Source: a virus (lineage: Duplodnaviria; Caudoviricetes). From it: DNA of 52,392 nt. Shown in pieces: positions 1,005-34,952 of the stretch. A model generated the notes under the pieces. It was given only the letters and a program-made list of their open reading frames with translations, did no database searches and had not been told where the DNA came from. Within the stretch, counting starts at the first letter, position 1. Each line of letters opens with the position of its first letter. The stretch covers positions 1-52,392 of IMG/VR virus record IMGVR_UViG_3300025131_005133; one strand, 5' to 3'. A program made the translations under genes and the position numbers.

Positions 1005-3023
1005 ATGACAGAATTTAAAAAATTCAGCCTGTCAGACAATTTCATAGACGGATATAAAAGAAAAAGAGCACCATTCGGTTTTAACGGATTGGGTGAACTT
1101 GTCTATATGAGAACATATTCTCGTCTAAAAGATGATGGAAAAAACGAAATGTGGTGGGAAACTGTTAAGCGTGTTGTAGAGGGAACTTACAACATGCAAA
1201 AGAAACATATTGAGAGATATGATTTAGGGTGGAACGCGTGGCAAGCACAAAGGTCAGCACAGGAGATGTATGACCGAATTTTCAATATGAAATTCTTACC
1301 ACCCGGCCGAGGACTTTGGGCTATGGGAACATCAATAACCGAAGAACGAGGTTTGTACGCCGCCCTCAACAATTGTGCATTCGTATCAACACAAAATCTG
1401 AAAGATGATTTATCTAAACCATTTACATTCTTAATGGATGCAAGTATGGTTGGTGTTGGTGTTGGTTTTGATACAAAGGGTGCAGAATCGTTTGTTATAA
1501 GAGGACCCAAAACTGATAGAGGTATAGAAACATATGTAGTACCAGATACTCGTGAAGGATGGGTTGAATCAGTACGAAGATTATTAGATTCATATTTTCT
1601 TGGTATAACTCCAGTTGAGTTTGATTACACACAGATTAGAGAAAAGGGAGCACCAATCAAAGGATTCGGTGGTGTGTCAAGTGGTTACGAACCATTAGAA
1701 GAAGTCCATAATACCGTTAGAGAAACATTAGATAAGAATGTAGGTGAACCAATTTCAATAACTACAATCGTTGACATTATGAATCTAATCGGTAAGTGTG
1801 TTGTAGCTGGTAATGTAAGACGAACTGCTGAAATAGTATTTGGTGATTCAACATCAGAAGAATACATCAATTTAAAGAATTATAAAAAGAACCCACATAG
1901 AGAAACATATGGTTGGACATCAAACAATTCTATATTTGCTGAGTTGGGTATGGATTATACAGAAACGGCTGAACGAATAAATGATAATGGTGAACCTGGT
2001 TTCGCGTGGTTAGATAATATGAGAGAATATTCTCGTATGAAAAATGGTGGGGATAATAAAGATCACAGAGTTGCTGGTGGTAATCCCTGTCTTGAACAAT
2101 CACTTGAATCTTATGAGTTGTGTTGCTTGGTAGAAACATTTCCAAACAATCACGAGAGTTTAGAAGATTATATCAAGACATTGAAATACGCATATCTATA
2201 TGCTAAAACAGTAACACTTGGAAAAACACATTGGTCTGAAACAAATAGAGTGATGTTACGAAATAGAAGAATTGGAACATCAGTAAGTGGTGTGGCTCAA
2301 TTCATTACAGACAAAGGATTACATCAATTAAGAGAATGGTTAGAAAGTGGATATGATGCAATTCAAGATTATGATAAAATGTATTCAGATTGGTTAGCAG
2401 TTCCTCGTTCAATCAAAACTACATCAGTTAAACCAAGTGGAACTGTATCTCTATTAGCAGGAGCAACACCAGGATTACACTATCCTGAATCACGTTTCTA
2501 TATCAGACGAATAAGATTATCAATTAATTCACCATTAATCAAACCATTACAAAAAGCAGGTTACAACATAGAACCAGCTTTCGGTAGTGAAGATTCAACA
2601 GTAGTCGTAGATGTACCGGTTGATGTGGGTGAAGGTGTAAGAACAATTAACGATGTATCAATGTGGGAACAAATGAGTTTAGCAGCATTCATGCAAAAGT
2701 ATTGGGCAGATAACCAAGTAAGTTGTACTGTAACATTTGACCCTGATACAGAAGGACATCAGATAGCATCAGCACTTAACTATTTCCAATATCAGATGAA
2801 AGGTATATCATTCTTACCTAAAATGGAATTGGGTGCATACAAACAAATGCCATACGAAGAAATCACAAATAAAAAATATGATAAGATGGTAAAAGAATTA
2901 AGTTTCTTATCATTCAGACAAGTCAAAGGGAACGAAGCAGAAGTTGAAAAGTTCTGTAACAATGACCATTGTGAAATTGATTTTGGTGAATTGGTAGAGG
3001 AAACACAGGAAGCGGGGGTTTAA
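1005..3023 (+). CDS. nrdJ: Class II (adenosylcobalamin-dependent) ribonucleotide reductase, monomeric RTPR type
   Basis: RTYSR, PPGRGLW, ALNNCAF, GNVRRTAE, NPCLEQ (thiyl Cys), TTSVKPSGTVS, C-terminal CxxxxC; AGGAG RBS. Confidence 0.93.
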   Translation: MTEFKKFSLSDNFIDGYKRKRAPFGFNGLGELVYMRTYSRLKDDGKNEMWWETVKRVVEGTYNMQKKHIERYDLGWNAWQAQRSAQEMYDRIFNMKFLPPGRGLWAMGTSITEERGLYAALNNCAFVSTQNLKDDLSKPFTFLMDASMVGVGVGFDTKGAESFVIRGPKTDRGIETYVVPDTREGWVESVRRLLDSYFLGITPVEFDYTQIREKGAPIKGFGGVSSGYEPLEEVHNTVRETLDKNVGEPISITTIVDIMNLIGKCVVAGNVRRTAEIVFGDSTSEEYINLKNYKKNPHRETYGWTSNNSIFAELGMDYTETAERINDNGEPGFAWLDNMREYSRMKNGGDNKDHRVAGGNPCLEQSLESYELCCLVETFPNNHESLEDYIKTLKYAYLYAKTVTLGKTHWSETNRVMLRNRRIGTSVSGVAQFITDKGLHQLREWLESGYDAIQDYDKMYSDWLAVPRSIKTTSVKPSGTVSLLAGATPGLHYPESRFYIRRIRLSINSPLIKPLQKAGYNIEPAFGSEDSTVVVDVPVDVGEGVRTINDVSMWEQMSLAAFMQKYWADNQVSCTVTFDPDTEGHQIASALNYFQYQMKGISFLPKMELGAYKQMPYEEITNKKYDKMVKELSFLSFRQVKGNEAEVEKFCNNDHCEIDFGELVEETQEAGV

Positions 3024-3532
3024 TGAAAAATACAACTTGGAATAAAGATTGGAGAAAATCTGTTATCATATTAAGTGGTGGATTTGATCCAGTTCATAAA
3101 GGACATTTAAGAATGTTCAGAGAAGCATCTTGGCTAGGACATCAAGTAGTAGTAGGATTAAATTCAGATGAATGGTTAACACGAAAAAAAGGTAAACCAT
3201 TTATGGAGTTTAAAGAGAGAAAAGAAATACTTGAAGGGTTTAAATATATAAATCAAGTACTAGCTTTTGATGATTCAGATGATACTGCTTGTGGTTTACT
3301 TAAACAAGTTAGAACTATTTATAGTGGTGATGGATTTAACTATGATTATTTAGATACAAATCCTACTGGTGAGAATGAATATAAATTATACTTTGCTAAT
3401 GGTGGCGATAGAACAAAAGAAAATATTCCAGAAATTCCTGTATGTAAAGAACTTGGTGTTGAAATGTTATGGGGAATCGGTGGTGGTAAAATTCAATCAT
3501 CATCCTGGCTAACAAATGGAGAAGAAAAATAA
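3023..3532 (+). CDS. Cytidylyltransferase-like (HxGH) nucleotidyltransferase
   Basis: SGGFDPVHKGH, VGLNSDEWL.RKKG, FANGGDR, GGGKIQSSS. Confidence 0.88.
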   Translation: MKNTTWNKDWRKSVIILSGGFDPVHKGHLRMFREASWLGHQVVVGLNSDEWLTRKKGKPFMEFKERKEILEGFKYINQVLAFDDSDDTACGLLKQVRTIYSGDGFNYDYLDTNPTGENEYKLYFANGGDRTKENIPEIPVCKELGVEMLWGIGGGKIQSSSWLTNGEEK

Positions 3533-4665
3533 TTAGATTATTATTTATATTATTATTTTTATTTTCTTGTACGGATAATACAAATCCAGTAAGTACAGAA
3601 AATAATTTAACAACAATATCATCAGAAGCACTAACAATAAATCCTGGTGATTTACCAGAACCATTTATAGTTGGTGGTGAAGAAGTAGACCCAGCATGTC
3701 CAAATTGTAAATATGAATTTATGGTTTCACTTCGATATAGTGGTGGTCATTGGTGTGGTGGTTCACTTGTTAGAGAAGATTGGGTAATCACAGCCGCTCA
3801 TTGTGTAGAAGGAGTTTCAGAAAATAATCTTCAAGTTAAGATTGGATTACATAATGTTAATTCAACAACAGGAGCTATAACAAGAAATGTAGATGACATT
3901 ATAGTTCATCCACAATATAGTGGTTGGTCATTAGATAATGATTATGCTATACTACACTTATCATCACCTGTTACAAACTTTGAACCAATACAATTAGTTA
4001 CAGATGATTCACACGATGAAGAACCTGTAATGTCAACAACAATGGGTTGGGGTGCGACATCATCTGGTGGTGGTAGTTCTAATGTATTACTTGAAGTAGA
4101 TGTTCCAATTGACGATGGTTGTGGTAACTATTCTAATTCAGATATAACAAACAATATGGTTTGCGCAGGTGATGGTAACGGTGGTGAAGATTCTTGTCAA
4201 GGAGATAGTGGTGGTCCATTGATTATGACAAATGGTGATGGGGAGTATGAACTTATTGGTATAGTTAGCTGGGGATATGGTTGAGCTGAAGCTCAGTACC
4301 CGGGCGTGTACTCTCGAATATATCCAAGATTATCTTGGTTCTTTGATTATATAGGTGAACCTGAAACAGAATTTATTCCAGATTTATATGGTGATTCTAA
4401 CTTTGATGGTGTGATAAATGTTCTTGATATTGTTGTCATTGTAGGTTTTATATTGGGTAATGAAGAACCAACTGAAGAACAATCAATAACATCAGATATG
4501 AATCAAGATGGTGTTATAAATATTTTAGATGTGATATTGGTAGTAAATGAAGTTCTTGGAACATCATTTACACAATCAGTTCAATGGTTGGAAAAAACCT
4601 TTCCAGAATTAAAGACAAAGGAAAGATTAAGCAAATTAAATAAATTACAATATTTTGCTAAATAG
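3529..4665 (+). CDS. Lipoprotein trypsin-family (S1) serine protease with C-terminal dockerin-like domain; in-frame TGA at 4282-4284, probably selenocysteine
   Basis: One frame: signal/lipobox (IRLLFILLFLFSC), IVGG at 3667, TAAHC, DNDYAIL, DSCQGDSGGP, GIVSWGYG*AEAQYPGVY, then two DxNxDGVINxLD repeats. Joins track ORFs 3721-4284 and 4306-4665; start codon uncertain (ATA at 3529). Confidence 0.85.
4281..4317 (+). promoter_or_regulatory. Putative bacterial-type SECIS hairpin
   Basis: AGTAC (4295-99) pairs with GTACT (4308-12) around CCGGGCGT, 10 nt after the TGA; TTGAG/CTCGA can form a lower stem; local codons are unusually GC-rich. Confidence 0.65.
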
Positions 4666-4673
4666 GAGATAAG

Positions 4674-5114
4674 ATGGGATATAAACGAATAGTAGGTTTC
4701 ACTTGTGGAGCATTTGATTTGGTTCATCCAGGACATATGGTTATGTTTGAAGATGCTAAACATCAATGTGGTTATCTCATAGTAGGATTACAATCGGATC
4801 CAACAATAGACAGACCAGATGTAAAACATCACCCAGTTCAATCAGTTCGTGAACGATTGGAAATGTTAAAGGCGATACGATATATAGATGAGGTGATTGT
4901 ATATGATACAGAAGATGATTTGTATGAATTACTTAAAGAAATTAAACCAAATATACGAATCATCGGAAGTGATTGGAAACAAAGTAATAGTGGTTTCACA
5001 GGAGATGACTTACCAATCACGATATACTGGCACCACAGAAGCCACGATTGGTCATCATCAGATTTAAGAGAACGAGTATTTGAATCAGAAAAATGGAGAT
5101 GTAAAGCAAGATAA
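4674..5114 (+). CDS. Glycerol-3-phosphate cytidylyltransferase-like (TagD family)
   Basis: GAFDLVHPGH, IVGLQSDP, YIDEV, GSDW, SSSDLR; AGGAG RBS. Confidence 0.85.
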   Translation: MGYKRIVGFTCGAFDLVHPGHMVMFEDAKHQCGYLIVGLQSDPTIDRPDVKHHPVQSVRERLEMLKAIRYIDEVIVYDTEDDLYELLKEIKPNIRIIGSDWKQSNSGFTGDDLPITIYWHHRSHDWSSSDLRERVFESEKWRCKAR

Positions 5115-34180: not shown

Positions 34181-34952
34181 GAAAAATATTGTCTTCATGA
34201 TGGATGTTGACATTAAAGGTGATGGTAGATATTCGTCTAATCGTAGATTATCATATAAATATTCCATAGATAGTTGGAAAAAGTGGTGTAAGAAAAATGA
34301 TTGTGAATTATTTGTATTAAATGATTTGATATTAGAAAATGATAGAATGGGAATATGTTGGCAGAGATATTATCTGTTTGACATATTGGATTCCAATAAT
34401 ATTAAATATGACCAAATAGCGATGGTAGATGCCGATACTATTATTCATCCAGATACACCTAACTTTTTTGAAATGACTGATAGAAAATTATGTGGTGCTC
34501 AATTTGATGGAAGTTGGGATTGGGTATTGAGAAGTCTTGAAAATTATTCTAAATATATATTTGATGGTTACATGATGTCTTGGTGGAATTACTTTGATTG
34601 TGGATTTATAATTGTAAACAAAACTCATAAACAATTTTTTCAAGATATTATAAGTTTTTATTTTACAAACCAAGATAATTTAATTAGAGTACAGGAAACC
34701 TTTTATGGAGGAACAGATCAAACTCCTGTCAATATGTTGGTTCATAAGCGAGAAATAGATTTAAAGTTATTACCATATGAATTTAACATGAATGATATGG
34801 CTCGTAAAGAAATATTGAGTGAAGATTTATTATTCACGAAAGTTGGTTGGATATATCAATATAATGCTATACCAAATAATAAAGACAATCAACTTACAAA
34901 TTATTTTATGGAGAAGACTTATAAATATTTTTATGGAGAATTGAATGAATAG
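34167..34952 (+). CDS. GT-A glycosyltransferase (paralog of the 25228 N-domain)
   Basis: WQRY, MVDADT, FFEMTDRK, DQTPVN. Confidence 0.75.
   Translation: MISVKKNIVFMMDVDIKGDGRYSSNRRLSYKYSIDSWKKWCKKNDCELFVLNDLILENDRMGICWQRYYLFDILDSNNIKYDQIAMVDADTIIHPDTPNFFEMTDRKLCGAQFDGSWDWVLRSLENYSKYIFDGYMMSWWNYFDCGFIIVNKTHKQFFQDIISFYFTNQDNLIRVQETFYGGTDQTPVNMLVHKREIDLKLLPYEFNMNDMARKEILSEDLLFTKVGWIYQYNAIPNNKDNQLTNYFMEKTYKYFYGELNE

Follow-up and report, generated by a model that had tools for sequence, protein, structure and literature searches.

The in-frame TGA at positions 4282-4284 of a 52-kb viral record fragment (IMG/VR record IMGVR_UViG_3300025131_005133; 52,392 nucleotides, 31% GC, analysed over its whole length and hereafter called the window) is most likely, at a probability of roughly 0.8, decoded as selenocysteine (Sec) in what appears to be a secreted, lipid-anchored Asp189 trypsin-like protease carrying a dockerin. 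The gene occupies a 378-codon frame on the plus strand (3529-4665), in which the sole internal TGA is codon 252, stands in the context ...GIVSWGYG-TGA-AEAQYPGVYSRI... and is followed by 126 codons before the frame ends at a TAG. Automatic listing of open reading frames (ORFs) breaks the gene into two pieces, 3721-4284 and 4306-4665, and translation confirms that the pieces lie in one frame and that 126 codons follow the TGA, as an earlier reading of the letters alone (hereafter the sequence-only reading) had stated. That reading had proposed a viral selenoprotein, an interpretation now supported by codon alternation at the site, by selection downstream of it, by the recurrence of the TGA in independent contigs and sequencing runs and by the normal behaviour of TGA as a stop elsewhere. 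Beyond its case, we find a co-varying hairpin in the TGA forms only and a tRNA-Sec gene in a syntenic relative.

The PF00089 match to the S1 peptidase domain covers profile positions 11-219 of 220 and spans the TGA, and the match to dockerin type I (PF00404) covers residues 287-343 and the complete profile (1-57 of 57). The catalytic triad and the S1 Asp, described as intact in the sequence-only reading, are all present (His57, Asp102, Ser195 and Asp189), and alignment to the solved trypsins of Fusarium (1fn8, E 2.5e-45) and salmon (1utj) places the TGA at the cysteine of the SWGxGC motif, presumably Cys220 in chymotrypsin numbering, and bears out the claim that it replaces a conserved cysteine. 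In family S1, the Cys220-Cys191 disulfide is a textbook feature. The partner Cys191 is invariant, with D-x-C-QGDSGGP found in 50 of 50 Sec rows, and the signal-peptide pattern LLFILLFLFS-C is, as judged by eye, also kept in relatives. In an AlphaFold prediction from a 21-row alignment (mean predicted local distance difference test score, pLDDT, 52.4) the protease core is unusable, and the only confident parts are the dockerin and the C-terminal helices (pLDDT 82-93 over approximately residues 290-370).

A scan of viral contigs returned 24 loci, four of which match the dockerin only and 20 of which hold the whole protease at 65-78% identity, with TGA at the site in nine and TGT in 11. Together with the window and 80 metagenome contigs these make 101 copies, and tabulation of TGA against TGY, a check that the sequence-only reading had suggested, gives 57 TGA against 44 TGT or TGC (40 and 4, respectively) at the same codon. 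Since the viral and metagenome sets overlap, counts over distinct segments are safer, and among 76 distinct 93-nucleotide segments the codon is TGA in 42, TGT in 32 and TGC in two. Cellular homologues are more distant: identity does not exceed 48% in the best 80 of at least 591 loci, and 87 of 87 motif matches in them read TGT or TGC, two of the 80 loci being without a motif match. Of 8000 proteins scored in a word-index search, 1432 had E values of 1e-40 or better; the 120 highest-ranking, drawn from the JGI, ENA, Tara, NCBI, Logan, MGnify and metaclust collections with habitats not given, are 67-84% identical and are called 'trypsin' wherever they are named. As these matches are called proteins, they are expected to be Cys forms. 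A tblastn search with the protease against GenBank phages gave no match. One 64.9-kb contig (that of locus L178) is identical over residues 91-378 of the protein and extends some 62 kb beyond the gene. In five Cys forms (L001, L004, L010, L011 and L016) the linker from the lipobox to the protease domain contains an additional PCCV(N/Y/T)PP stretch that includes a pair of neighbouring cysteines (alignment A1, columns ~30-55), and this insert is absent from 10 of 10 Sec forms in that alignment.

The explanation that sequencing or assembly turned a TGT into this TGA has in its favour only that the two codons are one base apart, and we give it next to no weight. TGA stands in 57 of the 101 independent contig copies, and linked synonymous differences set the TGA alleles apart from the Cys alleles. 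Unitigs from public DNA runs are, moreover, identical to the window across the codon (X1 over 4200-4532 and X3 over 4194-4364, with no differences), a third run (X2) also covers it, and among the table rows listed for X1-X3 no variant falls at 4282-4284. The sequence-only reading had proposed the use of reads as a control for error, and with the TGA present both in independent contigs and in public runs the error explanation is refuted for practical purposes.

TGA is otherwise an ordinary stop in the window. The 57 plus-strand frames of at least 100 amino acids end in 28 TGA, 18 TAA and 10 TAG, with one running off the end; at each of the other 27 TGA stops the frame closes again within a few codons, and Trp is encoded by TGG 273 times. 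These counts confirm what the sequence-only reading had said of stops and Trp codons and rule out genome-wide recoding of TGA (codes 4 or 25), so that the TGA within the protease gene is a single-site event rather than part of a recoded genome. A search for a second selenoprotein gene yielded no other TGA-split frame that is plausible as a gene, either in the window or in its 113-kb relative G001 (introduced below). The screen required 40 or more codons both before and after the TGA, and a Sec near a protein end would escape it; apart from the protease gene, the only plus-strand frame in the window is that at 34942, with 41 codons upstream, and in G001 two such frames are on the plus strand, the remainder being short minus-strand frames opposite long genes.

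Past the TGA, the frame is under purifying selection. In a set of 21 sequences (pairwise Nei-Gojobori estimates, pairs with dS of 0.05 or less excluded), the median ratio of nonsynonymous to synonymous rates (dN/dS) is 0.25 upstream and 0.25-0.29 downstream of the TGA in Sec forms, and 0.24 and 0.32-0.35 in Cys forms; the comparison of the two sides, another check put forward in the sequence-only reading, thus finds the same purifying selection upstream and downstream. None of the 10 Sec forms in this set has a second stop or a frameshift. At least 100 amino acids are kept downstream in 41 of the 50 Sec rows, the others stopping at contig ends, and the dockerin motif is kept in 42 of the 50. 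Judged by this conservation, the downstream part of the protease gene is translated.

The same data bear on the view that the TGA is a genuine stop, which would leave a truncated, inactive fragment of a gene that is decaying or off in part of the population, with the downstream part untranslated or separate. TGA is indeed the commonest stop in the window (28 of 56 complete frames), and the window copy is without a canonical start codon. Yet 42 distinct TGA alleles keep the 126 downstream codons open, the downstream dN/dS of the TGA forms is no worse than that of the Cys forms, no further lesion has accumulated in the 10 Sec forms, and the GTG at 4306 has no Shine-Dalgarno sequence before it. 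A dead gene would, furthermore, not keep a TGA-specific hairpin of rare codons with compensatory changes, such as the one described next, and we regard termination at this codon as very improbable.

The hairpin lies immediately 3' of the TGA; in the window its stem begins 11 nucleotides past the codon and its loop holds GGG, and the consensus of the TGA alleles is UGA-N10-(A/G)GUAC-CCRGGYGU-GUA(C/U)U. RNAalifold returns the same helix unprompted. Of the 200 cells that the five inner pairs make up across 40 distinct TGA forms, 199 are paired, and compensatory changes occur in two pairs: pair 24-39 is G-C in 32 forms, A-U in seven and unpaired in one, with GGG or CAG accompanying UAC and GGA accompanying UAU so that the changes fall at third codon positions, and the closing pair is C-G in 38, U-A in one and U-G in one. 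In 500 shuffles of the TGA forms none matched the observed covariation or pairing, and six slid registers all scored lower. The 32 distinct Cys forms behave differently, with pair 24-39 unpaired in 22, a closing pair that is U-G, U-A or broken and never C-G, and covariation no better than that of shuffles (415 of 500 reach the observed value). UAC encodes the first Tyr in 38 of the 40 distinct TGA forms, against one of the 32 Cys forms. The hairpin codons TAC CCG GGC GTG TAC are rare in this 31% GC genome, where the shares among synonymous codons are 18% for TAC (Tyr), 7% for CCG (Pro), 2.7% for GGC (Gly) and 11% for GTG (Val). Minimum-energy folds of single sequences disagree among themselves, and the comparative analysis alone is informative.

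The two states of the codon are interspersed on a tree built from 88 of the 101 copies, 50 Sec and 38 Cys (the other 13 were left out as identical or shorter than 250 amino acids), and this tree requires 13 changes of the Sec/Cys label, at least three of them forced by well-supported branches. An approximately unbiased (AU) test rejects a single Sec clade (log-likelihood difference 250, p 0.00084). Recombination could have contributed to this pattern. The Cys allele of G001 retains CCG GGU GUG UAC and stands two bases away from a Sec-type hairpin, so that it looks like the product of a recent Sec-to-Cys change.

The window is syntenic with 41.3-80.5 kb of G001, a 113-kb record of a myovirus, as its T4-type major head protein (E 1e-70) and tail sheath (E 3e-77) indicate, and G001 carries a tRNA-Sec gene at 103,633-103,723 that scores 69.4 bits against RF01852 (cut-off 47) over the full model (1-91). 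ARAGORN calls it tRNA-SeC (tca), with anticodon UCA, and it has 8/5 bacterial-type arms, a long variable arm and, as read from the alignment, G73-CCA. It sits between HAD-like and CobT-like genes that are neighbours in relatives too. The sequence-only reading had stated that no Sel machinery is encoded in the window, and our searches agree, finding no tRNA of any kind, tRNA-Sec included, and no SelA, SelB or SelD; by synteny, the G001 tRNA-Sec would lie about 23 kb past the window's end, and its absence from the window is uninformative. On the wider question that it had raised, that of sel genes in the phage, the outcome is divided, with a tRNA-Sec in syntenic G001 and no SelA, SelB or SelD in the viral records searched.

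Here the principal alternative has to be weighed, namely that the UGA is read by a near-cognate tRNA for Trp or Cys, or by a Cys-charged tRNA-Sec-like tRNA, with the hairpin slowing the ribosome or blocking release factor 2, so that full-length protease is made without selenium. In some bacteria, tRNA-Sec-like tRNAs are reported to recode UGA as Cys. A selected downstream frame and a conserved local hairpin fit stimulated read-through as well, and the five to six related viral records searched for each Sel protein yielded no such gene. Against this, the codon that replaces TGA is always Cys (44 of 44), which is the usual signature of Sec, and Trp is unsuited to forming a disulfide. The tRNA(UCA) of the phage reaches a full tRNA-Sec score, and its discriminator base is G73, as in tRNAs of the Ser/Sec type, whereas tRNA-Cys has U73. 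Plain read-through, finally, usually amounts to a few percent and so would yield little enzyme. We consider decoding without selenium unlikely, although it is the least improbable of the alternatives.

Several observations weigh against Sec decoding. The helix is small (5-6 base pairs) and weak (RNAalifold consensus -3.2 kcal/mol); an 81-nucleotide single-sequence fold of the window has z = -0.58, its minimum free energy structure being without this helix; and Rfam has no family that matches the hairpin, the site neighbourhood giving only a chance-level hit (E 9.5) and a scan of the whole window no family match. Pairing persists in 72-76% of cells among the Cys forms and is attributable to the three pairs dictated by the Tyr-Pro-Gly-Val-Tyr codons. 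On the side of the machinery, tRNA-Sec was found in only one of 11 related records, all of them fragments (8-63% complete; the other ten are 19-83 kb long), and its carrier, G001, has a Cys-form protease; SelB and SelD were not found in G000-G004 nor SelA in G000-G005, G006-G010 having been searched for tRNA-Sec only. Five relatives that share a gene adjoining the G001 tRNA-Sec have no tRNA-Sec in the flanks of that gene or in their whole records. Expression is a further concern: the window copy, with ATA instead of ATG, may be poorly expressed, and the one metatranscriptome contig that crosses the site (RNA run X20) is that of a relative with 16 differences and, as such RNA libraries can hold DNA, doesn't show transcription. 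Lastly, host searches by similarity of tRNA-Sec and transfer-messenger RNA (tmRNA) gave no host assignment.

Should Sec decoding nevertheless hold, the hairpin at 4295-4312, with GG in its 8-nucleotide apical loop, would act as a bacterial-type selenocysteine insertion sequence (SECIS) and would recruit SelB carrying Sec-tRNA(Sec) in the infected bacterium. SelA, SelB and SelD would come from the host, and the tRNA-Sec from the host or, in at least one relative, from the phage. In the product, a selenenylsulfide between Sec220 and Cys191 would replace the Cys191-Cys220 disulfide beside the S1 pocket. Both Sec insertion and the binding of SelB to the hairpin are proposed here from sequence comparison, and the Se-S bond to Cys191, the dependence on host SelA, SelB and SelD and a selenium-dependent expression would follow from the same model. 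Sec may also confer a benefit, for example through a less reducible or faster-forming bond in a secreted enzyme. On a broader and decidedly more tentative scale, which we hold somewhat short of probable, a large marine T4-like myovirus lineage may make a genuine selenoprotein, the first in a bacteriophage, with Sec at a structural disulfide and not at a redox-catalytic residue; its members would switch repeatedly between Sec and Cys by gaining and losing a minimal SECIS, some would carry their own tRNA-Sec and thereby raise Sec-decoding capacity, and the polymorphism would track selenium supply or the Sec competence of hosts.

As to the host, the closest cellular protease (48%) is that of the 'FCB group' metagenome-assembled genome (MAG) G011, in whose phylum 102 of 151 sampled genomes have a tRNA-Sec (loci L167 and L256-L284). 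No tRNA-Sec was found in any of 151 sampled genomes from the order of Flavobacteriales MAG G012, and the two marine groups thus contrast sharply in the Sec trait. None of the 30 tRNA-Sec compared with that of the phage exceeds 65% identity to it, and the phage tmRNA, whose one-piece form is a further lead to the host, matched genomes of the one phylum searched over its last 29 nucleotides only. According to the accessible part of a preprint (10.64898/2026.04.03.716425), 135 Pelagibacter genomes are without selC and all Actinomarina genomes have Sec genes; if Sec is required, the former argues against SAR11 as the host.

Coordinates of the features are given in Table 1.

Table 1. Features of the protease gene in the window (coordinates of the window)
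Feature	Position	Strand	Basis or detail
Shine-Dalgarno-like GGAGAAG	3518..3524	+	7 nt (3522-3528) between GGAG core (3518-3521) and ATA
Probable non-canonical start ATA	3529..3531	+	ATG at this position in relatives
Lipoprotein-type signal peptide IIRLLFILLFLFS-C (putative)	3529..3570	+	Lipobox Cys 3568-3570; by eye, no predictor
S1 trypsin-like peptidase domain	3709..4338	+	PF00089, residues 61-270, E 4.7e-59; PDB trypsins E 2.5e-45
His57 (TAAHC)	3799-3801	+	Sequence reading
Asp102 (NDY motif)	3940-3942	+	Sequence reading
Asp189	4189-4191	+	Sequence reading
Cys191 (DSCQGDSGGP)	4195-4197	+	Sequence reading
Ser195 (GDSGGP)	4207-4209	+	Sequence reading
In-frame TGA at Cys220 position, proposed selenocysteine codon	4282..4284	+	Alignment, homologue codons, public unitigs
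SECIS-like hairpin	4295..4312	+	Stem AGUAC (4295-4299)/GUACU (4308-4312); 8-nt loop CCGGGCGU (4300-4307)
Dockerin type I, two Ca-binding repeats, 3' of TGA	4387..4557	+	PF00404, E 7.4e-11
Stop TAG, full-length gene	4663..4665	+	Sequence reading

The 5' end of the gene calls for separate comment, since the span of 3529-4665 given in the sequence-only reading stands as far as the open frame is concerned and lacks a canonical start, the codon at 3529 being ATA. The sequence GGAGAAGAAAA upstream of the ATG start of relatives is the same as in the window. Among 58 listed distinct upstream regions, ATG, GTG and TTG are absent before the signal peptide only in the window and in L208, which begins at the first base of its contig; all other listed upstream regions that reach the start have ATG. 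The G-to-A change that gives ATA also converts the overlapping TGA stop of the upstream gene to TAA. Depth in the public runs is 0 at 3529-3566, and ATA is the reading given by the record. Initiation in the window copy would have to use ATA or the next codon, ATT.

The protease is flanked by cytidylyltransferase genes (3023-3532 and 4674-5114) and lies upstream of approximately 30 tightly packed plus-strand genes (~13585-45347) that form an apparent nucleotide-sugar or glycosylation cluster, very large for a phage, with glycosyltransferases, two DegT-type aminotransferases, sugar C-methyltransferases, an oxidoreductase and an IRX15/GXM-like domain. The cluster is about twice as long as its counterpart in G001, with which it shares only partial homology. 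Besides the two cytidylyltransferases, the window encodes a Mom-like protein, a class II ribonucleotide reductase, a clamp-loader ATPase and a PolB whose nearest isolate is Microcystis phage Mel-JY01 (47%), T4-like phages standing at approximately 32%. The Mom-family protein (119-913; PF25680, E 1.8e-52) suggests DNA modification in the phage.

In G001, a GC-rich, possibly structured stretch of approximately 150 nucleotides comes after the tRNA-Sec (L025 1501-1595, equal to G001:C1:103633-103727), and a run of 10 N lies about 200 nucleotides upstream of it, inside the HAD-like ORF, whose frame continues through. At approximately 91.97-92.39 kb the same record has a tRNA-Arg(UCU) and, immediately after it, a one-piece tmRNA with the tag peptide GNEYQYMAVA (L112 11967-12387). 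Exact-pattern scans also located genes for tRNA(UCA) in further viral contigs (L114 2275-2371, L115 4551-4650 and L120 2499-2573), which ARAGORN calls tRNA-SeC. They are 47-48% identical to the G001 tRNA-Sec, and a tblastx comparison of the flanks examined with G001 and the window gave no match at E 1e-8; L114 comes from a 65-kb contig whose examined stretch is 31% GC. A scan for the T-arm pattern matched only G001 and one unrelated contig.

Were the proposal to prove true, phages would share in ocean selenium use, and an orphan selenoprotein family known from metagenome reads published in 2008 would gain a genomic home. Standard gene callers would be seen to split and hide such genes. The natural pairs of Sec and Cys alleles, with and without a minimal SECIS, would form a series for studying SECIS evolution inside a coding sequence, and the same pairs could show what Sec contributes at a non-catalytic disulfide. 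The hairpin itself would rank among the smallest natural bacterial SECIS candidates, and, with Sec required, only bacteria that use Sec would come into question as hosts of this uncultured lineage of phages.

The protein family as such is already known. A trypsin-like Sec family was predicted from Global Ocean Sampling (GOS) reads; nine of its sequences have Sec and 128 have Cys, a bacterial SECIS is predicted, and the accessible text assigns no organism (Zhang & Gladyshev 2008, PLoS Genet, PMC2398784). The statement in the sequence-only reading that Sec-containing trypsin-like sequences are known from marine surveys is borne out by that paper. The family stands without a representative accession in the table of a 2022 review (PMC9312934, as far as its accessible part goes), the accessible part of a 2021 GOS survey reports selenoprotein families with few or no viral sequences (PMC9402790), and the only viral selenoproteins named in the corresponding part of a 2021 review are the poxvirus glutathione peroxidases of molluscum contagiosum and fowlpox (PMC8310308). 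Searches of full-text literature, with most subscription journals outside their reach, turned up no paper describing a selenoprotein or a tRNA-Sec of phages. What appears to be new is the origin in phages, together with the minimal SECIS candidate that co-varies, the recurrent Sec/Cys switching and the phage-borne tRNA-Sec.

Likened by description only, and from the accessible part of the 2008 paper, the protease resembles the GOS family as a marine secreted trypsin-like domain (COG5640/PF00089) with UGA at a conserved Cys, many Cys homologues and a predicted SECIS just downstream. It differs in that the GOS sequences are single unassigned reads, whereas those described here are full-length phage genes in T4-like myovirus contigs, and it adds to that family a putative lipoprotein signal, a dockerin, hairpin covariation, repeated Sec/Cys switching and a phage tRNA-Sec. 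With the poxvirus selenoproteins, as outlined in the accessible part of their review (PMC8310308), the system would share a virus-encoded UGA-Sec gene that depends on host machinery, and the fowlpox SECIS likewise lies inside the coding region. Those viruses, however, infect eukaryotes, use a eukaryotic SECIS and SBP2, and carry captured redox enzymes with catalytic Sec (PMC8310308), whereas here a bacteriophage would employ a local bacterial-type hairpin and place Sec at a structural disulfide position of a hydrolase. Compared with the S1 trypsins 1fn8 and 1utj, the core is 36-45% identical and has the same catalytic triad, Asp189, C191-QGDSGGP and SWGxGC, but UGA replaces the Cys220 codon in about half of the phage alleles, and a putative lipoprotein signal and a dockerin are added. 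In the E. coli fdhF SECIS, about 11 nucleotides separate the UGA from the essential upper stem and the loop G lies about 20 nucleotides from the UGA. The phage hairpin is similar in being an in-gene stem-loop right after the UGA, with apical-loop guanosines and comparable spacing, and differs in being much shorter (5-6 base pairs, 8-nucleotide loop), with no obvious bulged U or lower stem. Finally, as in the recoded crAss-like and Lak phages, a phage tRNA reads a stop codon; unlike in those phages, where the stop is reassigned across many late genes, TGA stays the main stop here, and a single gene carries it in frame.

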